DNA of 32,000 nucleotides from Halogeometricum borinquense DSM 11551 (lineage in GTDB: Archaea; Halobacteriota; Halobacteria; Halobacteriales; Haloferacaceae), in the NCBI RefSeq assembly GCF_000172995.2, contig NC_014729.1:360001-392000 (forward strand), in the 5' to 3' direction. Shown here piece by piece: positions 1,972 to 32,000 of this stretch. Both the position numbers and the translations under genes were made by a program. The notes under the pieces were generated by a model. It worked only from the letters and a program-made list of their open reading frames with translations, was not told the origin of the DNA and ran no database searches. Numbering within the stretch: the stretch's first letter is position 1; every line of letters begins with the position of its first letter.

Positions 1972-3231
1972 TTACGACTCCGTCTTGTCGGCCTCGTCGT
2001 CCGCATCTGCCGTCTCAGCTCCTTCCTCGTCTTCGCTTTCCTCAGCCACTTGCTCGGCCACTCGTTCGAACGCGGCGAGGATGACGCGTTTTGCCGCCGC
2101 ACCGTTCGTCGTCCAGTGGTGGGCGTAGTCCAGCATGTCGTCGTAGATGTCCGGCTTACAGCCGGCGGCCTTCGGGTGGCCGCCGCCGTTGACCTGCCCG
2201 GCCACCTCGTGGGCGCGTTCGAATCCATCGGACCCGCGGATACTGGCGCTTCCAGCGGGTTTGACGACGACAGCGGCGTCTGCGCCGCGTTCGCGCAGTC
2301 CTTCTGCGACCTCGTTCTGGGAACACCGACCGTAGGTGACGCCGACAGTCCACGGACCGACCTGCTTTATCTCCGCGCGGTCGAGTGCGGCGTCGATGAG
2401 TTGCTGTTTCTCGACGCGACGGAGTTCGATGAACTGTTCGACGATCTCAGGGAGATCGACGCCGTACGCGCCGACGACCGCGACGTACTCCTCGGGACTG
2501 ACCCAGTAGGCGTAGTCGGCTAAGTCGTCGCTTCGCTCGTCTTCTTTCAGCCACAGATCGTGATCGCGGGTGACGGCGGCGAGTTCGGTCCACCGGTCGT
2601 CGAAGTCGTAATCAAGCGAGCGCAGAGTCACGCCCGTCGAACACTCCTCGTCGGACTCACCGACGACGAGTTCGACGCCCGCATCACGGACGGCGACCAT
2701 CGTCTCGTCGTCCCACTGGTGGTGGTCGTACCACGAGACGGAGTCGGCGCGGTCGAGAAGCGCGGCCAGTTCGTCTTCGACCCACTCGTACTGGTCAGGA
2801 CAGAGGTCACAGACGTAGGCGTCGATATCTTCGGGGGCGTACTCGGCAACCCGTTCGAGCGCGTCGTCCAGCGAGTACGGCCCTGCACCGACGAGTGCGA
2901 CAGTCGAGCGCGGCAGTTCCTCGTCTTCGTCCTCGTCCTCGTCGTCTATCGGTCCATCCGCCTCCCAGCGTTCGACTCGGCGAGCCACGTCGTCTTCGAA
3001 CGCCGCTACGTCAAGTGTCGCGTCGTACATCTCTCGAATGAGGGCGACACAGCCGAGTCCGTCGGCGTCCGTGTCGGCGATGACGACGGCTTCGGCGTCT
3101 TCGACGGCCTCTTTCACTCGTTCTTCGGCGCGTTCTTCATCCAGCGAATCGGGATAGAAAAAGCCCGTTCCGGGCAACTGCGACTTCCGCGAGAGCGACA
3201 GCCGAGAACTGTCGATAAGTTCCTCTTCCAT
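1972..3231 (-). CDS. DHH/DHHA1 family phosphoesterase (RecJ-like)
   Basis: Motifs VIADTDADGLG (DxD), YDHHQW (DHH) and GGGHPKAAGC (DHHA1), followed by an acidic tail. The start is uncertain: ATG at 3231 (MEEELIDSS) or the upstream in-frame start at 3285. Confidence 0.85.
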   Translation of the reverse strand: MEEELIDSSRLSLSRKSQLPGTGFFYPDSLDEERAEERVKEAVEDAEAVVIADTDADGLGCVALIREMYDATLDVAAFEDDVARRVERWEADGPIDDEDEDEDEELPRSTVALVGAGPYSLDDALERVAEYAPEDIDAYVCDLCPDQYEWVEDELAALLDRADSVSWYDHHQWDDETMVAVRDAGVELVVGESDEECSTGVTLRSLDYDFDDRWTELAAVTRDHDLWLKEDERSDDLADYAYWVSPEEYVAVVGAYGVDLPEIVEQFIELRRVEKQQLIDAALDRAEIKQVGPWTVGVTYGRCSQNEVAEGLRERGADAAVVVKPAGSASIRGSDGFERAHEVAGQVNGGGHPKAAGCKPDIYDDMLDYAHHWTTNGAAAKRVILAAFERVAEQVAEESEDEEGAETADADDEADKTES

Positions 3232-3307
3232 ACCTGTTCGAGGAGTGCGGGGGTGAAAATCTCCGTGGTCCGGCGTGCGCCCCACAGTCGGCGTTTCGAC
3301 GGGTGGC

Positions 3308-3772
3308 TCAGGCTGATTCGGGGGTTCCTTCCAGTCCGTCCGTCTCGTCTTCGGCTAACTGACGAACCGTGAGAACTGGAACCGGACAGGTGCGGACGAC
3401 GCGTTCGGCAACCGATCCGATGAGGAATCGGTTCTCGCCGTGTCGGCCGCGCGTCCCCATCGCCACCATGTCCGCGTCCACCTCGCGGGCGTAATCGCCG
3501 ACGACGGTGGCGGGCCGTCCTTCGCGGACGGCCGTCGTCACCGACCGGTCCGTTGCCTCCTCCACTTCCGAGAGGGCGCGCTGTCCGCGTTCCGTCAACG
3601 CCTCGCGCATTTCATCACGGAGTCGTTCGGGCGAGGAGTCAACCTCGCTGGCATCGACAACGTACAGCGCGTGGACCGACGCACCGAATCGGTCTGCGAG
3701 GTCCAAGGCGACATCGACGGCCCGGCGGACGCTCTCGGAACCGTCCGTGGCAACGACGATTGTGTCGAACAT
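3308..3772 (-). CDS. universal stress protein (UspA family)
   Basis: MFDTIVVATDGSESVRRAVDVALDLA...MVAMGTRGRHGENRFLIGSVAERVVRTCPVPVLTV is the canonical USP pattern including G-x2-G-x9-G-S. ATG at 3772 is preferred over the upstream start at 3859. Confidence 0.9.
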   Translation of the reverse strand: MFDTIVVATDGSESVRRAVDVALDLADRFGASVHALYVVDASEVDSSPERLRDEMREALTERGQRALSEVEEATDRSVTTAVREGRPATVVGDYAREVDADMVAMGTRGRHGENRFLIGSVAERVVRTCPVPVLTVRQLAEDETDGLEGTPESA

Positions 3773-3867
3773 GGGCGGCGGTTCACCCGCAGGTGGCATA
3801 AAACCAGCCGAGGAATTGCGGTCGTGCGGGGTGGGTCTTTTTGACGGCGGCCGTCGCATGCCCCGGT

Positions 3868-25921: not shown

Positions 25922-28630
25922 ATGAATCGGGACAGTCACGATACCGAGGAGGCGGGCCACGACCACGGCCGCGATCATCCACCTTCTAGCGACGACACTG
26001 AAGCGTGCGGGTGTGATGATGGCTGTGACACGGATGAGTCGTCCACATCCGTAGCGAGTGGGTTCGACGGCGACGGGCAAACGCTTCGGCTGTCAGTGCC
26101 GGAGATGGATTGTCCCTCGTGTGCGGAGAAGGTCACAAAAAGCGTCCGTGGTGATGCGGGCGTTCGTGACGTAGACGCGCAACCGACGACGGGGACGTTG
26201 TACGTTCAGTACGACCCCACGGCGACCGACGACAGTGCTGTCCGGTCACGCGTCGAAAGCGCGGGCTACGCTATCGCTGATGAGGAGACGGTGACGTTCT
26301 CCGTCCCGGAGATGGACTGTCCCTCCTGTGCCGGAAAGGTGGAGAACTCCCTCGATGGTGTCTCTGGCATCGTTGACTTCGAGACGCAACCGACGGCTGG
26401 GAAGGTGACGATCCGCTACAACCCCGACGAGGCCTCGCGTGGTGACTTTGTGGCCGCTATCGAGGGTGCGGGCTACGCCGTCGAAGATGACGGAGGAGCG
26501 GACTCTCCGCACGATGTGTGGCGGAGTCAACGTGCACTGAAGACGTGGGGCGGTGCAGCCTTCCTCGCTGTCGGCCTCGGACTGGAGTTCGTTGTAGAGG
26601 GACTCGATTTGGTTCTCGCCGCGCCGGTCGGGTACGAGATCAGCGTTGCGTGGGTCTCGTACACGCTCGCCGTTCTCCTCGCGGGTATCCCCATTCTGCG
26701 GAACGGCTACTACTCAGCGAAGAATCTGAGTCTGGATATCGATCTGCTCATGACTGCGGGTATCGTCGGCGCGATGGCGGTCAACATGCCGTTCGAGGCG
26801 GCGACGCTCGCAGTCCTGTTCAGCGTCGCGGAACTACTCGAACGCTTCTCGATGGACCGCGCGCGCAACTCCCTGCGGGAATTAATGGAGTTGTCGCCCG
26901 ATACGGCAACAGTTCTCCGTAATTCCGGTTCCTCGAAGACATCCCAAGCGGAGCGCGAGGAAGTCGTCGTCCCCGTCGAGGATGTGGCCGTTGGCGAGAC
27001 CGTGATCGTCCGCCCCGGTGACCGCGTTCCGCTTGACGGCACCGTAACCGAAGGAACCTCTGCGGTTGACGAGTCACCGATTACGGGCGAATCCGTCCCC
27101 GTAGACAAAGAACCGGGTTTGGAGGTGTTCGCCGGGAGCATCGTCGAAGAGGGCTATCTCGAAATCGAGACGACCACGCCGGCGAGCGAATCGACGCTCT
27201 CGAAGGTGGTCGATATGGTCGAAGACGCCAACCGCGAGAAGACCGAGGCCGAGCGGTTTATCGACCGGTTCGCCCGGTACTACACCCCGATCATCGTCGT
27301 CGGTGCCATCGCCACAGCGACGGTACCGCCGCTTTTGTTCGAGGAACCGTTCCGCATGTGGTTCGTGCGCGCACTCACCCTCTTGGTGGTCGCCTGCCCC
27401 TGCGCGTTCGTCATCTCGACGCCTGTTTCCGTTGTCTCCGGTATCACCTCGGCGGCGCGTAACGGCGTTCTCGTGAAGGGCGGTCAACACCTCGAAGCGA
27501 TGAACGACGTTGACGCTGTCGCCGTGGACAAGACGGGGACGCTCACGACCGGCGAACTCGGCGTCACCGACGTGGTCGCCCTCAACGGCAACGACGAGTC
27601 GGACGTTCTCGGCTGTGCGGCCGCCATCGAATCACGCAGTGAACACCCCATCGCACAGGCTATCGTGGAGTACGCCGCCGACCGCGACGTGCCAGAACGG
27701 GATATTCGGGAGTTCGAGTCCATCACCGGCAAGGGCGTGAAAGCCGTCCTCGACGACAAAGTACACTACGCCGGCAAACCTGGTCTGTTCGAGAGTCTCG
27801 GATTCGACCTCGAACACACGCACGTCCAAGCGGATGGTGGCGTGCGGTCCGACGGCGGACAGGCCGTTGAGGACGCACGCAACTGCGACCACGGACGCTA
27901 TCTCGACTTGGCGAACGAAGTCGTCCCGCGTCTACAAGCCGAAGGTAAGTCGGTCGTTCTTGTCGGCACCGAAGACGAAATAGAGGGTGTCGTCGCCGTT
28001 GCCGACACAGTGCGTCCTGAATCGGCGTGGGCCGTTTCGCGCCTTCACGACCACGGCATTTCGCAGGTCGTGATGCTCACCGGCGACAACGAGCGCACCG
28101 CGCAAGTCATCGGTGAACGCGTCGGCGTAGACGAGGTCCGTGCCGACCTCTTGCCCGAACAGAAGGTCGAAGCCGTGCGCGAACTGCTTGCCGAACACGA
28201 CTCGGTAGCGATGGTCGGCGACGGCGTGAACGACGCGCCCGCTCTCGCCGCCGCGACGGTGGGCGTCGCCATGGGTGCTGCCGGAACGGATACGGCATTG
28301 GAGACGGCCGACGTGGCCCTTCTCTCAGACGACCTGACGCGACTGCCGTACCTCGTTGACCTCTCGAACGGCACCTCATCCGTCATCAGACAGAACGTCT
28401 GGTCGTCACTTGTCGTCAAAGGTGCCCTCGCGGTCGCCGCACCGCTCGGCATCATCAGTGTCGCCACCGCTATCATCGTCGGGGACATGGGTATGAGTCT
28501 CGGCGTGACGACGAACGCGCTCCGACTCGCAGGTGTTGACCCCGAGTCGGCAGTTGCGGACGCGGAGGCTGACCCTGGGGACGCGGAGTCGAGCGTGGAC
28601 GACTCTCTCGCTGATACGTCAGCCGCGTAA
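25922..28630 (+). CDS. heavy-metal translocating P1B-type ATPase, Zn/Cd/Pb-like (P1B-2 signature)
   Basis: His/Asp-rich N-terminus, two HMA domains (MDCPSCAEKV and MDCPSCAGKV), TM4 CPCAFVISTP (CPCx4SxP), DKTGTLT, GDGVNDAPAL, and TM6 GDMGMSLGVTTNALRL (DxG, as in ZntA-type pumps). Confidence 0.93.
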   Translation: MNRDSHDTEEAGHDHGRDHPPSSDDTEACGCDDGCDTDESSTSVASGFDGDGQTLRLSVPEMDCPSCAEKVTKSVRGDAGVRDVDAQPTTGTLYVQYDPTATDDSAVRSRVESAGYAIADEETVTFSVPEMDCPSCAGKVENSLDGVSGIVDFETQPTAGKVTIRYNPDEASRGDFVAAIEGAGYAVEDDGGADSPHDVWRSQRALKTWGGAAFLAVGLGLEFVVEGLDLVLAAPVGYEISVAWVSYTLAVLLAGIPILRNGYYSAKNLSLDIDLLMTAGIVGAMAVNMPFEAATLAVLFSVAELLERFSMDRARNSLRELMELSPDTATVLRNSGSSKTSQAEREEVVVPVEDVAVGETVIVRPGDRVPLDGTVTEGTSAVDESPITGESVPVDKEPGLEVFAGSIVEEGYLEIETTTPASESTLSKVVDMVEDANREKTEAERFIDRFARYYTPIIVVGAIATATVPPLLFEEPFRMWFVRALTLLVVACPCAFVISTPVSVVSGITSAARNGVLVKGGQHLEAMNDVDAVAVDKTGTLTTGELGVTDVVALNGNDESDVLGCAAAIESRSEHPIAQAIVEYAADRDVPERDIREFESITGKGVKAVLDDKVHYAGKPGLFESLGFDLEHTHVQADGGVRSDGGQAVEDARNCDHGRYLDLANEVVPRLQAEGKSVVLVGTEDEIEGVVAVADTVRPESAWAVSRLHDHGISQVVMLTGDNERTAQVIGERVGVDEVRADLLPEQKVEAVRELLAEHDSVAMVGDGVNDAPALAAATVGVAMGAAGTDTALETADVALLSDDLTRLPYLVDLSNGTSSVIRQNVWSSLVVKGALAVAAPLGIISVATAIIVGDMGMSLGVTTNALRLAGVDPESAVADAEADPGDAESSVDDSLADTSAA

Positions 28631-28673: not shown

Positions 28674-28687
28674 ATCTATCGATAGAT
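28674..28687. promoter_or_regulatory. perfect 14-nt palindrome ATCTATCGATAGAT overlapping the metzincin start codon
   Basis: Read directly from the sequence. The last two bases are the A and T of the ATG at 28686. Confidence 0.35.
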
Positions 28688-29759
28688 GTCCGCTCGCAGG
28701 TCCCCAGCAGTCGCACTCGTTCTTCTGTTGGTCCTCTCGGGTTGTCTCGCACCGTTCTCGGGCGCTGAATCCCCCATTCCCGTCGGCGATGAGACGCCGA
28801 GCGCAACCACGTCTACGGAACAAGCTGCCGCGAGGACGGCGACTCAGAACCCTTCCACCACCGCCGCACCGACTGGTGCGAGTCCGTGGGGCGACGACCC
28901 AATCGTCGTCGCCGTCTCTGATCCGGAACACACCGGACGCGACTGGACGCCACTCGTTCGACAAGCCGCGGCGTACTGGGAGACGAACGCCGAGCAGTAC
29001 GCTGGATATACTGTCGAATATGAAGTGCGTCCGGACGCGGCGAATCCCGATATCGTCGTGGAGTTCGTCGATGACGTGCCCGACTGCGACGGTGCCGAAG
29101 ACGCCGCGGGGTGCGCGCCGCTCATTACCGACCGGAGGCAGATAGACACCCCCGAGACGGTTTCCATCCAGACGAGGTTCTCGAACGACTCGACTGTCCT
29201 CGTCCTCGAACACGAGTTCGGCCATACCCTCGGTCTCACTCACGACGACGCGCCCGCGGACGTGATGGCGAGTCGCTCGGTGCTTTACACGACGCCACAA
29301 CCGAACGCCACCGAACGGGCGTTCCCGTGGGATGACGGCGAATTCACCGTCTACGTAGACTCAGCGAACGCGACGAAATCCGAACAGGCGCGCGAACAGG
29401 TCCAACACGCTCTCGACTACTACGAACGCGGTGCTGAGGGGATGCCGAACAACCTCACGTTTACCGTCGTTGACGACGCCGAGAACGCGGATATCGTCGT
29501 CGGCTTCTCGGATGAGTCTCCGTGTTCGCCGGATGCCGCCTCCTGCGGCGCGACGCGAGGGTGGGACCCCGACGGTGATGGCGTCGTCGAGACGTACTCG
29601 AATCTTCGAATCGTCCTCGTGGACCTCGATACCGACGCGGTGGGATGGCACACTGGCTACTGGCTGGCGTTTGGCTTCGGTGCGGAGGACGACGCTGAAA
29701 AACCAGACCCGTTCCGCGACGCCTCCTACCGGGAACGCCGGAACGAGTGGTGGGAGTGA
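28686..29759 (+). CDS. secreted metzincin-like zinc metalloprotease lipoprotein with an internal domain duplication
   Basis: Lipobox LLVLSGC and a Ser/Thr/Ala-rich linker. HEFGHTLGLTHDD (HExxHxxGxxHD) at 29211-29249, with a possible Met-turn ADVMAS. The second half repeats the fold pattern but lacks the metal ligands. Confidence 0.8.
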   Translation: MSARRSPAVALVLLLVLSGCLAPFSGAESPIPVGDETPSATTSTEQAAARTATQNPSTTAAPTGASPWGDDPIVVAVSDPEHTGRDWTPLVRQAAAYWETNAEQYAGYTVEYEVRPDAANPDIVVEFVDDVPDCDGAEDAAGCAPLITDRRQIDTPETVSIQTRFSNDSTVLVLEHEFGHTLGLTHDDAPADVMASRSVLYTTPQPNATERAFPWDDGEFTVYVDSANATKSEQAREQVQHALDYYERGAEGMPNNLTFTVVDDAENADIVVGFSDESPCSPDAASCGATRGWDPDGDGVVETYSNLRIVLVDLDTDAVGWHTGYWLAFGFGAEDDAEKPDPFRDASYRERRNEWWE

Positions 29760-29909
29760 TGTCGGGGTTGTCACTACGGGTGTTGAAGTATACTGCTGTA
29801 CCGTCGTCCGCTAGCAGGACGAGACTGATGGCCAGCCCGAAACTTCCCGACCCCGACGACTTGGACCGTTAGCTCATGTGTGGCCGAGACACGAACGCGG
29901 CGATGTGCT

Positions 29910-30200
29910 TCAACGAGGCTTTTCTGAACTAGGGCTGGGATAGCCCGAACCAACGCCCTCAGGAATCCGATATCTCTGGTGTGCGAATAAATAGCGTAGC
30001 GATTCATTAACACCTGTTGAGACTGCGCTCTCTGCGAATACCACTTCGGTGTCTGCAGAGTGCGTCGTAAAAACGGGATGCTTCGGGGTCGTACGGAAGA
30101 CAAAGCCTTCCGTGATGACGAGACATTCCGCGTCTCGAACCACTTGAACCTGAGGTGATTCACCGTACTCGACATCGTATTGGTGGCCTTGCTCAGGCAT
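29910..30200 (-). CDS. hypothetical protein (96 aa) in the low-GC island
   Basis: ATG at 30198-30200 is preceded by GGTGAgaaa (Shine-Dalgarno-like). MPEQGHQYDVEYGESPQVQVVRDAECLVITEGFVFRTTPKHP... is mildly acidic. The overlapping alternative frame 29774..30226 is basic and was rejected. No family recognised. Confidence 0.35.
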   Translation of the reverse strand: MPEQGHQYDVEYGESPQVQVVRDAECLVITEGFVFRTTPKHPVFTTHSADTEVVFAESAVSTGVNESLRYLFAHQRYRIPEGVGSGYPSPSSEKPR

Positions 30201-30322
30201 TTTCTCACCCCGTATTCGGTTTCCACATCGGTGTCTGTGGGTGTTCAACAGGATATGCGGTGATCGCCTTGTAGATACTGTCCGATGACTGGTATGAAGT
30301 GTCTGTTTCTCAGTGGGAGCAT

Positions 30323-30796
30323 TCAGTCAGTGAATATCTCAATGAGGGCTTGATCATCCCGGCGGCGGGCGATAGATCGGGGGGATTTTCCGGCGTCGTT
30401 CTGATTCGCTGGATCTGCCCCGTGAGCAACAAGTGATTGAATTATGTCGTCTTTGGTCTCTTCGTTCACTACTGCACTCCATAACGGTTGATTACCGTAG
30501 TCATCCGTTACTGTAACATCTGCTCCTTCACTAAGGAGAATCCTTACCATGTCTTCGTAACCCATCTCCAGCGCGTAATGGAGCGGTGTCTTCCCTTCTT
30601 TACCTCTGTGGTTGATGTCGATATCTCGATCTATGAGTTCTTTCGCAAACTCATCTTGTCCATATGCTGCTGCGGCATGGAGCAGATTATCGCCGGACTC
30701 GTCTAATGTATTTATATCGACGGTATTGATTAAATCCCGAAATTTCTCTTCATCGCCTTCTTCAATGCTGTAGAATAGGAGTGTCGTCTCATCCAT
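30323..30796 (-). CDS. ankyrin-repeat protein (157 aa, 3-4 ANK repeats); putative immunity protein
   Basis: ANK signatures GDNLLHAAAAYGQDEFAKELIDRDIDIN, GKTPLHYALEMGYEDMVRILLSEGADV, and GNQPLWSAV...LVAHGADP. The ATG lies 2 nt downstream of the toxin stop codon. Confidence 0.85.
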   Translation of the reverse strand: MDETTLLFYSIEEGDEEKFRDLINTVDINTLDESGDNLLHAAAAYGQDEFAKELIDRDIDINHRGKEGKTPLHYALEMGYEDMVRILLSEGADVTVTDDYGNQPLWSAVVNEETKDDIIQSLVAHGADPANQNDAGKSPRSIARRRDDQALIEIFTD

Positions 30797-30798
30797 CG

Positions 30799-31662
30799 TT
30801 ATTCATCTCCCTCGTACTTTCTACTGCGGTTGGCTTTTGGCTTTTCCGGCCGATAGTTATCCGGGTCCCGGTACCTGTTGAGAAATTCTTCTTTCGAAAT
30901 TAGTCCGCTTATGTACTTTTGATGCAATTTACGGTATTCCCTCCGGGGCTTGTGTCCCATATCCCACTGTCCCTCACGTGGTTCGCCTCGATCCCATTCG
31001 AGCCGTTCACCGGTATTTGGATCATAAACGTTCCCGTCTTCGTCTTTTGCCTGTTCCCACACTGCTTCGACTTGTCCATCGGCGTAATCTGGCCGGTTGT
31101 TGGCATATGGTTTGTCCTTCTCCTCACCACTTCTCGGCTGTTTGTACCTCTCTTCTAATTCGCTGAATTTTCCCTTTTCATCACGCTTCTGCTTTTCCCA
31201 CTGTTTGATCCTTTGAACGTGTATTCCTGCATTCGCCATGCGATGCACGCCGATTTTCCCACCTTGCATCACGCGCTGGGCGGTTTCTTCGGCTTCCCGC
31301 TCTAAGCGTGGGTCAGGATCAATCTCTAACTCGCCCGCTTGGGGGAGCATCGACACCGCGCCACCCGTTTGCTGGCGCACGTGTGCTAACTCGTGGGCGA
31401 GAATATGCTGGCCTTCAGCACTCGATGGATCGTACTCGCCGTGGTTGAACGCGATGTGATTGCCGACGGTAAACGCGCGGGCGTTGATGTCTTCACAGGC
31501 TTTCGCGGCCGATGGACCCGTGTGAATACGCACGTCGCCGAGGGTGTCACCCATCCGATCTTCCATCGCGCGCTGAATTGAGGTATTGAGACGCTGGTCA
31601 GACAGCACTGAAATATTACGAGCCGTCTCGTTAGAAAAGGCTCGTCTGTTGAGTAAACGCAC
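30799..31662 (-). CDS. polymorphic-toxin-like protein: N-terminal DUF4157 (HExxH) domain plus C-terminal GH-E family HNH/EndoVII nuclease domain
   Basis: DUF4157 pattern MEDRMGDTLGDVRIHTGPSAAKACEDINARAFTVGNHIAFNHGEY...ILAHELAHVRQQ. GH-E pattern GQVEAVWEQAKDEDGNVYDPNTGERLEW...WDMGHKPRREYRKLHQKY...EEFLNRYRDPDNYRPEKPKANRS. GTG start at 31662 is the first start in the frame. No signal peptide. Confidence 0.8.
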   Translation of the reverse strand: MRLLNRRAFSNETARNISVLSDQRLNTSIQRAMEDRMGDTLGDVRIHTGPSAAKACEDINARAFTVGNHIAFNHGEYDPSSAEGQHILAHELAHVRQQTGGAVSMLPQAGELEIDPDPRLEREAEETAQRVMQGGKIGVHRMANAGIHVQRIKQWEKQKRDEKGKFSELEERYKQPRSGEEKDKPYANNRPDYADGQVEAVWEQAKDEDGNVYDPNTGERLEWDRGEPREGQWDMGHKPRREYRKLHQKYISGLISKEEFLNRYRDPDNYRPEKPKANRSRKYEGDE

Positions 31663-32000
31663 CGCTTTCGGGGTTGTGGAACTCCGGATAGAAGTCGATA
31701 TAGCTGTAGCAGTGGGCCGCCATGAACTGTCCTAATCCCAGCACACGGAACTCCTCGGGCGGAACGACGCCCATCTCGATAAACACATCTCGAATCTGGC
31801 ACCGAAGGTAGTGATCCATGAACGACTGGAAGTATTCCAGGCTCTCTAGCTCAATCGGGAGCAGTTCGATAACCGTATCCGGCTCTCTGGAGGTCGGTTC
31901 GAGATGGTCATCGGCGGCCACTAAGTCCGTCCCTTCGGGGTGTTTGACGTACAATTGGGACGTGTTGTCGATATAGACCGCGTCTGAGAGGTCGATCTGT
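31631..32000 (-). CDS. hypothetical protein, 5'-truncated by the window edge
   Basis: The frame is open from the window end: ...QIDLSDAVYIDNTSQLYVKHPEGTDLVAADDHLEPTSREPDTVIELLPIELESLEYFQSFMDHYLRCQIRDVFIEMGVVPPEEF...*. The TTG at 31954 used by the ORF track is probably not the true start. The 3' end overlaps the toxin start by 32 nt. No family recognised. Confidence 0.5.
   Translation of the reverse strand, partial: QIDLSDAVYIDNTSQLYVKHPEGTDLVAADDHLEPTSREPDTVIELLPIELESLEYFQSFMDHYLRCQIRDVFIEMGVVPPEEFRVLGLGQFMAAHCYSYIDFYPEFHNPESGAFTQQTSLF

Follow-up and report, generated by a model that had tools for sequence, protein, structure and literature searches.

A 5′-truncated DUF4157–GH-E toxin gene and its ankyrin partner as a candidate orphan cassette of the contractile injection system of Halogeometricum borinquense

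The tox1 and Ank1 genes and their predicted products

Analysis of a 32,000-nt stretch of DNA from Halogeometricum borinquense DSM 11551 (NC_014729.1, positions 360,001 to 392,000; hereafter, the window) revealed close to its end two co-oriented genes: tox1 (locus tag Hbor_04090), which encodes a predicted toxin with a DUF4157 domain and a GH-E nuclease-type domain, and Ank1, which encodes an ankyrin-repeat protein predicted to confer immunity (Table 1). The longest open reading frame (ORF) of tox1 encodes 287 aa and begins with the first GTG at 31662, and the 269-aa Hbor_04090 product in GenBank matches a GTG start at 31608, where the gene call of a draft assembly starts too. Searches with profile hidden Markov models (HMMs) from Pfam matched the protein to PF13699 (eCIS_core, formerly DUF4157) with an E-value of 3.9e-31 and 107.5 bits over profile positions 2–78 of 79, and to PF14410 (GH-E) with an E-value of 1.2e-28 and 99.9 bits over the whole profile (positions 1–68 of 68). 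The gathering cutoffs of these models are 22 bits and 25 bits, respectively, and both matches are far beyond chance. Within the one tox1 protein, DUF4157 (residues 25–101) lies N-terminal to GH-E (residues 209–284).

Residues expected for both domains are conserved. The zincin motif HExxH reads HELAH in tox1 (residues 90–94, positions 31381–31395) and is invariant in alignments with 19 and 11 relatives (A1 and A2, respectively). In the GH-E domain, tox1 has G236-H237 and E242, whose alignment columns do not vary among 19 GH-E relatives; alignments A1 and A3 show no variation at W233, M235, G236, H237, E242 and Y243 and hardly any at a later PE (E273). The 'N' that Zhang et al. (2012) give for Tox-GH-E varies within the GH-E set aligned here. 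The tox1 reading frame contains neither a frameshift nor a stop codon, its GTG starts are usable, and the HELAH and GH-E motifs are intact. The GH-E tip is a candidate DNase.

The stop codon of tox1 (TAA) ends at 30799 and is followed, after a 2-nt spacer, by the ATG of Ank1 at 30796. Ank1 is ankyrin throughout (Pfam Ank_2, E 1.7e-23), with three to four repeats. As judged from sequence, tox1–Ank1 is a real toxin–immunity module with predicted toxicity and predicted neutralization, and Ank1 is most likely a working immunity gene. An earlier note, made from the letters of the window, had assigned DUF4157 and GH-E, located the HExxH motif, read the gene order as toxin followed by immunity gene, supposed an archaeal host and named ankyrin proteins as a known type of immunity protein. 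All of this is borne out: profile searches of both proteins placed PF13699, PF14410 and Ank_2 well above their cutoffs, HELAH and the 2-nt spacer lie where they had been read, the host is a haloarchaeon, and Imm-ank is listed by Zhang et al. (2012).

Comparison with structures and other databases was less specific. AlphaFold2, run with 19 relatives, modelled full-length tox1 with a predicted local distance difference test score (pLDDT) of 73, the GH-E region exceeding 90 and DUF4157 reaching about 75–84, and a model of GH-E alone attained a pLDDT of 89 and a predicted TM-score (pTM) of 0.79. Foldseek returned no significant match in the PDB for the full-length model, the weak top matches being abylysin (a minimal zincin) and Cap5 (an HNH nuclease), and the N-terminal half gave weak, non-significant matches to the zincins abylysin and BepA. 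The GH-E model yielded 13 PDB matches, again non-significant (best E-value 1.8, best TM-score 0.46), most of which are His-Me/HNH nucleases, namely Cap5, the colicin E9 DNase, McrA, the Cas9 HNH domain and Vibrio endonuclease I. A sequence search of the PDB found no relative of tox1, and we base the family assignment on the profile HMMs and the invariant motifs rather than on structure matches. PADLOC and PHROGs gave no match to tox1 and only generic ankyrin matches to its partner, which argues against an origin in a catalogued defence system or a phage.

Table 1 Features of the tox1–Ank1 locus. Positions are those of the window unless prefixed by L001, the draft-contig locus that continues past the window end.
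Feature	Position	Strand	Basis or remark
tox1 (Hbor_04090), DUF4157 (eCIS_core)–GH-E toxin ORF	30799..31662	(-)	ORF list, Pfam, paralog alignment
DUF4157 / eCIS_core (PVC-metallopeptidase), residues 25–101	31360..31590	(-)	Pfam
HVQR motif, residues 148–151, end of conserved block	31210..31221	(-)	Paralog alignment
GH-E (HNH/EndoVII, His-Me finger) nuclease toxin domain, residues 209–284	30811..31038	(-)	Pfam, alignments
Predicted catalytic residues of GH-E	H237 30952-30954; E242 30937-30939	(-)	Alignment
Ank1, 157-aa ankyrin-repeat protein, predicted cognate immunity (Imm-ank)	30323..30796	(-)	Pfam, layout
Recombination 'handle', 346 nt, 89% identical to tox2 (L001 2662-3007)	31236..31581	(-)	DNA comparison
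DUF7958 gene, 3′ part of 320 aa, runs off window	31631..32000 (L001 8114-9076)	(-)	Draft-contig annotation
Window-side end of about 9-kb low-GC island (GC 0.45–0.57 versus 0.62)	29900..32000		GC, flank
tox2 and its ankyrin gene	L001 2113-3969		Beyond window end; same low-GC island

A missing N-terminal region and mosaic homology with tox2

The 10 kb past the window end, taken from draft contig AOHT01000033.1 of assembly GCA_000337855.1 (locus L001), contain a second module of the same kind. Its toxin gene, tox2 (ADQ66023.1), lies about 6 kb past the window end, encodes a full-length DUF4157 and GH-E toxin of 417 aa in the complete genome, and is followed by a 170-aa ankyrin gene, Ank2. Ank1 and Ank2 are 33% identical and the GH-E tips of tox1 and tox2 have diverged to a nonsynonymous distance (dN) of 0.51, as expected for cognate pairs that diversify jointly. 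Both modules belong to one island of low G+C content, which reaches about 6.8 kb past the window end and also holds orphan immunity-type genes; the tox1–Ank1 module has a G+C content of 0.49, against a background of about 0.62. Besides the tox2–ankyrin pair, the 10 kb contain the rest of the DUF7958 gene whose 3′ end is the window ORF upstream of tox1 (31631-32000), an Ig_halo_2 gene, a DUF3368 gene and small ORFs. The labels DUF7958, Ig_halo_2 and DUF3368 come from precomputed annotation, their models being absent from the copy of Pfam searched here.

Alignment A2 comprises tox1, tox2, Hbor_01880 and Hbor_38900 (both secreted), Hbor_17540, Hbor_21730 and Hbor_28990. All of its H. borinquense paralogs except tox1 share a near-identical N-terminal region (MDGLDTKIQRLAKKHG...VPDSVRDVISSPGQ), which is followed by DUF4157 up to the sequence VHVQR, and after VHVQR they have nothing in common. 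A shared N terminus and DUF4157 followed by divergence past HVQR typifies polymorphic toxin families, and HVQR here marks the boundary between the constant and variable parts. Residues 33–151 of tox1 are almost invariant when compared with Hbor_01880, Hbor_38900 and others, and tox1 lacks the approximately 95–150-aa N-terminal region seen in tox2 and the other paralogs examined. The ORF had been taken for a complete toxin; it instead occupies the slot of a 5′-truncated secondary cassette. A tblastn search with the N-terminal region gave no match anywhere in the window, and the DNA upstream of the conserved block of tox1 is the 3′ end of the DUF7958 gene, on which grounds we rejected the possibility that the gene is split, its N-terminal region being encoded upstream in a different frame. 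Elsewhere, in Haloferax elongans (L010 9573-10861) and Natrinema gari (L059 9634-10882), the N-terminal region and the DUF4157 toxin do seem to occur in two overlapping ORFs in different frames, an arrangement that a frameshift, faulty sequencing or pseudogene formation might explain.

Comparison at the DNA level revealed that the homology between tox1 and tox2 is mosaic. It starts abruptly at 31581 and stops at 31236, just before HVQR, and on either side the sequences are unrelated or saturated. Within this stretch, which we refer to as the handle, synonymous divergence (dS) is 0.39 and dN/dS is 0.13, and synonymous sites are saturated beyond it. Full-length versions of the toxin type of tox1, including the N-terminal region, are encoded by Haloferax sp. 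S1W and by another H. borinquense strain (P0140); the relative in Haloferax sp. S1W is 74% identical overall, and its ankyrin protein is 57% identical to Ank1.

The draft contig carries 90 nt more inside tox1 than the window does (L001 9255-9433 corresponds to window 31364-31452). The additional stretch repeats 89 nt in tandem without a mismatch, with an N at the join; it adds 30 aa and doubles the HExxH region. A genuine 30-aa duplication was rejected, given the N at the junction and the agreement of the window with the 269-aa product of the complete genome, which has no duplication; because the repeat is perfect and joined by an N, we regard it as an assembly artefact at a DUF4157 sequence present in several copies. 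Similar in-frame duplications in the draft versions of tox2 (445 versus 417 aa) and Hbor_01880 (391 versus 366 aa) are likewise assembly artefacts, and short-read Logan contigs, too, break where this DUF4157 repeat ends.

Related cassettes in haloarchaea and bacteria and the neighbouring genes

A scan of reference genomes collected 57 haloarchaeal loci that encode relatives (L009–L065), none of them from H. borinquense itself. In many of these loci, a recurrent array was found in which a full-length toxin gene is followed by a gene in the immunity position and then by at least one short toxin gene, each with a downstream gene of its own. The short toxins, approximately 25 ORFs, start at or inside the conserved block (for example, in L012, L014, L025, L036, L037, L051, L060 and L063), and their truncation points vary between loci, falling at the start of DUF4157, in its middle or so far downstream that only the LEIDPDP...HVQR tail is left. 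Displaced orphan toxin/immunity cassettes are known from Rhs and CdiA systems, and an array with variable truncation points has the pattern of such orphan cassettes. The order DUF7958, tox1, Ank1 fits this putative orphan-cassette array exactly. Like tox1, the Rhs and CdiA orphans pair a 5′-truncated toxin gene, which retains part of the constant region as a homology handle, with an immunity gene next downstream; as in the haloarchaeal loci, they lie downstream of the full-length locus with variable truncation points. The constant parts differ, being Rhs/YD repeats or FHA with PxxxxDPxGL or VENN motifs in those systems and the N-terminal region plus DUF4157 with HVQR in the archaeal host, and, unlike the Rhs and CdiA orphans, tox1 is separated from its full-length gene by about 6 kb with unrelated genes between.

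The gene next downstream of a DUF4157 toxin is most commonly a DUF7958 gene, with 81 such ORFs in 41 of the 57 loci, which puts DUF7958 in the immunity position. We found no functional annotation for this family of about 320 aa, and its placement makes it a candidate for the dominant immunity family of archaeal toxins delivered by contractile injection systems (CISs). The DUF7958 gene before tox1 appears to be an immunity gene left behind by the cassette that preceded tox1. Between the two modules of the island lie a 61-aa fragment (L001 4059-4244) and a 151-aa ORF (L001 4559-5014) of one family, homologs of which adjoin other DUF4157 toxins downstream (L015, L027 and L050); both are putative orphan immunity-type genes, whose toxin partner is lacking at the locus. 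Genes for CIS components were encoded within 10 kb in a part of the 57 loci, comprising an AAA+/winged-helix-domain ATPase (Pvc15-type) in 27, Pvc16_N in 13 and the tail sheath in 8; loci with such genes nearby include plasmid pHFX2 of Haloferax sp. S1W. Several haloarchaeal DUF4157 toxins (P0029, P0036, P0041 and P0082) are named 'transposase' by NCBI or UniRef, which appears to be a misannotation.

Archaeal relatives of the GH-E domain all have one to three ankyrin genes next downstream, in Haloferax sp. S1W (L009), Haloferax elongans (L010) and Halovivax asiaticus (L011). Behind the GH-E toxin these form arrays of two to three ankyrin genes (L011 11576-12291, L009 10840-13084 and L010 10858-11912), and Halovivax asiaticus additionally encodes a bare C-terminal GH-E fragment that is paired with a separate ankyrin gene and represents an orphan cassette cut back still further.

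The closest bacterial GH-E domains come with the same pairing. On plasmid pNgVX of Neorhizobium galegae (L006 2209-3824; LZK73_29375/29370), a GH-E domain 60% identical to that of tox1 is encoded behind DUF2169 and the PAAR-like DUF4150 and is followed by a 150-aa ankyrin gene, whose product is 33% identical to Ank1 (E 9e-25). In Halomonas sp. PA16-9 (L007, about 3001-3791), the GH-E domain is 65–67% identical and a 157-aa ankyrin gene lies next downstream. A more distant GH-E domain (34% identity) is part of a Bacillus LXG toxin of the type VII secretion system (T7SS) and has a SuFu-type partner, matching the table of Zhang et al. The N. galegae toxin, which is of the type VI secretion system (T6SS) kind, resembles tox1 in its GH-E domain, in the same-size ankyrin protein encoded next downstream and in its contractile injection context, and differs from it in its bacterial host and in a delivery module made of PAAR-like DUF4150 with DUF2169 instead of DUF4157. 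An identity of 60–67% to the bacterial T6SS cassette points to exchange across domains of life in similar habitats, and suggests that the GH-E/ankyrin cassette moved as a whole between Bacteria and Archaea. In PLSDB, no H. borinquense plasmid was among the matches listed.

On the window side, the island tails off next to Ank1. A 96-aa ORF (29910-30200, reverse strand) adjoins Ank1 downstream in the low-GC tail and is called on some metagenome contigs; it gave no match in Pfam, PHROGs or the fetched loci. It is preceded in the window by a gene for a 357-aa matrixin-like metalloprotease (28686-29759, forward strand; Peptidase_M10, E 5e-10), the N terminus of which looks like a lipoprotein signal (LSGC), and by one for a 902-aa P-type ATPase (25922-28630, forward strand) with HMA, E1-E2_ATPase and Hydrolase domains in the precomputed annotation and two CPSC metal-binding motifs. 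These two neighbours of the island are unremarkable genes of the chromosome. We found no tRNA gene that would mark an integration site.

Delivery, competing explanations and significance

A machine that could deliver toxins of this family has been described in the same strain. Zachs et al. (2024, Sci Adv, PMC11566945) reported a CIS gene cluster, Hbor_38640-38890, on the 210-kb plasmid pHBOR03, encoding a T6SS-like apparatus that is anchored to the cytoplasmic membrane and kills Haloferax volcanii by contact. When wild-type and sheath-mutant secretomes were compared, four CIS structural proteins and five DUF4157 proteins (Hbor_01880, 02990, 07690, 38720 and 38900) proved sheath-dependent, and Hbor_38740, 38760, 02990 and 38900 could be introduced into H. 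volcanii only alongside the respective downstream gene (PMC11566945). The earlier note had seen no delivery route for tox1 and had held archaeal modules of this kind to be predicted but not characterized experimentally; on both counts this work had already supplied the answer, with five secreted DUF4157 proteins and four toxins neutralized by a downstream gene. Hbor_04090 is not among the five secreted proteins and is not mentioned in the text of that paper. The pair tox1–Ank1 resembles the published pairs (for example, those of Hbor_38900 and Hbor_02990) in coming from the same strain, in the near-identical DUF4157 block up to HVQR and in having a variable toxin at the C terminus with a protective gene downstream, and Hbor_02990, like Hbor_04090, lies on the chromosome away from the CIS cluster. 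Unlike the published toxins, Hbor_04090 lacks the N-terminal region, and the GH-E and ankyrin types are not described in that work.

The architecture itself was catalogued earlier. Zhang et al. (2012, Biol Direct 7:18) listed Tox-GH-E with Photorhabdus virulence cassette (PVC) delivery, PVC-metallopeptidase, Imm-SuFu or Imm-ank as partner and occurrence in euryarchaeota, and named H. borinquense as bearing several PVC-type toxins; tox1–Ank1 is exactly their combination of PVC-metallopeptidase, Tox-GH-E and Imm-ank, for which euryarchaea were included. Their catalogue was compiled by computation alone, took the delivery system to be extracellular and PVC-like, and noted that many PVC toxins lack an adjacent immunity gene; a downstream partner, by contrast, is the rule both at this locus and in the 57 haloarchaeal loci. 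Jablonska et al. (2017) recorded archaeal GH-E domains in H. borinquense and Halovivax. The Hbor_04090/ankyrin pair is, accordingly, a further member of a family already published for its architecture and its delivery, although a literature search found no paper with the Hbor_04090 locus tag or work on the pair. What this analysis adds is the second GH-E/ankyrin pair, the absence of the N-terminal region from tox1, the probable orphan-cassette setting and the ankyrin genes just downstream of the closest bacterial GH-E toxins.

We suggest that tox1–Ank1 is one of the cassettes in the polymorphic toxin arsenal of the T6SS-like CIS of pHBOR03, and specifically a secondary or 'orphan' reserve cassette that could be rearmed through its DUF4157 handle; we put the probability of this reading at roughly 0.6. 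In the full-length members, the N-terminal region and DUF4157 up to HVQR would form the constant 'delivery' part, followed by the variable toxin and then by the immunity gene. The GH-E tip of tox1 would act as a His-Me-finger DNase, and Ank1 would most likely block it by direct binding in the producer and in sister cells, so that Ank1 may be useful as it stands, as immunity to the GH-E type. Without its N-terminal region, tox1 as it is now probably does not load onto the CIS, and homologous recombination through the handle with tox2 or another full-length paralog could arm it, swapping in the toxin tip along with the immunity gene. The orphan reading rests on the absence of the N-terminal region, the start of tox1 behind DUF7958 and the 346-nt handle shared with tox2; the recurrent array of other haloarchaeal loci and the loading requirement reported for bacterial AlgoCIS cargo, described below, also speak for it.

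Several points weigh against this reading. The ORF of Hbor_04090 and its motifs are intact, and translation and activity as it stands are possible. The structural comparison of the predicted nuclease fold was without statistical significance. The rule that the N-terminal region governs loading comes from a bacterial extracellular CIS (eCIS) that loads its cargo into the tube lumen (AlgoCIS; bioRxiv 10.64898/2026.05.27.728243), where proteins of the plan N-terminal domain (NTD)–DUF4157–C-terminal domain (CTD) need the N-terminal region for loading and DUF4157 is dispensable. The AlgoCIS cargos Cgo1 and Cgo2 share this three-part plan with the full-length haloarchaeal toxins, but they belong to an extracellular system with cargo in the lumen, and their N-terminal region is disordered and non-homologous; tox1 has none. 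Because Zachs et al. saw no density in the lumen and proposed attachment to the spike (PMC11566945), the AlgoCIS rule may not carry over. Finally, we infer both the cassette recombination and the non-loading of Hbor_04090 from sequence comparison.

The strongest competing explanation, which we nevertheless consider unlikely, is that the short tox1 protein is already a fully working CIS effector, with translation starting at its own GTG and DUF4157 alone sufficing to dock it to the spike or baseplate. It would account for the intact ORF and invariant motifs, for the recurrence of short forms in many genomes and for the purifying selection on the handle (dN/dS 0.13), and DUF4157 is the sole feature common to all CIS-dependent secreted proteins of the strain (PMC11566945). 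The same dN/dS, however, also reflects selection in the tox2 lineage; both identified secreted paralogs in our alignment, Hbor_01880 and Hbor_38900, have the N-terminal region; and AlgoCIS loading needs that region and not DUF4157. The short forms elsewhere moreover have no fixed point of truncation, several being cut within DUF4157 or beyond it, which fits recombination debris rather than a designed class of effectors.

It is less probable still that only Ank1 matters, tox1 being a stranded remnant that is neither expressed nor ever rearmed, and the island serving as a store of orphan immunity genes against the GH-E toxins of neighbours. The partnerless immunity-type genes of the island (DUF7958, the 151-aa gene and the 61-aa fragment of the same family) and the extra ankyrin arrays of L009–L011 would fit such a store, but a stranded remnant is hard to reconcile with a tox1 that has no frameshift or stop, intact catalytic residues and a well-conserved 346-nt handle. 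We regard as very improbable an intracellular toxin–antitoxin, addiction or abortive-infection module unconnected to the secretion machine: the lack of a signal peptide or N-terminal loading region, the 2-nt spacer and the low-GC island would all suit one, but the lack of a PADLOC or PHROGs match speaks against it, as do the N-terminal domain, which marks CIS cargo, the secretion of paralogs of the same strain through the CIS and the presence of the GH-E/ankyrin cassette on bacterial PAAR-like T6SS toxins and of a distant GH-E domain on a T7SS LXG toxin. Least credible is the proposal of the earlier note that tox1 is the toxin of an eCIS encoded next door, for although DUF4157 is, as that note had stated, a marker of contractile-injection cargo (Geller et al. 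2021, who defined it as the eCIS core marker, highly specific for bacterial eCIS operons), neither the 32-kb window nor the following 10 kb, inspected as the note had advised, contains a CIS structural gene (sheath, Pvc16 or AAA+ homologs), the sequence past 32000 holding the second DUF4157 and GH-E/ankyrin pair instead, and the only CIS cluster described for the strain lies on pHBOR03 and is membrane-bound and contact-dependent rather than extracellular.

The orphan-cassette reading opens no new class, as the toxin family, the delivery machine and the toxin–immunity logic were already published for this strain. Its interest is that Hbor_04090 constitutes a natural experiment in a model organism, as a toxin that lacks the N-terminal region while a full-length paralog with the same toxin type lies some 6 kb away, and the pair of tox1 and tox2 should be useful for finding the loading signal of the archaeal T6SS and for following cassette swapping in archaea. 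Extended to the group, we advance only tentatively the idea that haloarchaeal CIS loci keep silent 5′-truncated cassettes that are rearmed through the handle, or else that the short forms are delivered through DUF4157 docking. Rearming through the handle would, if true, be the first polymorphic-toxin cassette switching in Archaea; delivery of the short forms would, if true, mean that the archaeal T6SS, in contrast to bacterial eCISs, uses DUF4157 itself for docking. On either outcome, both the conserved N-terminal region and DUF4157 would gain a function.

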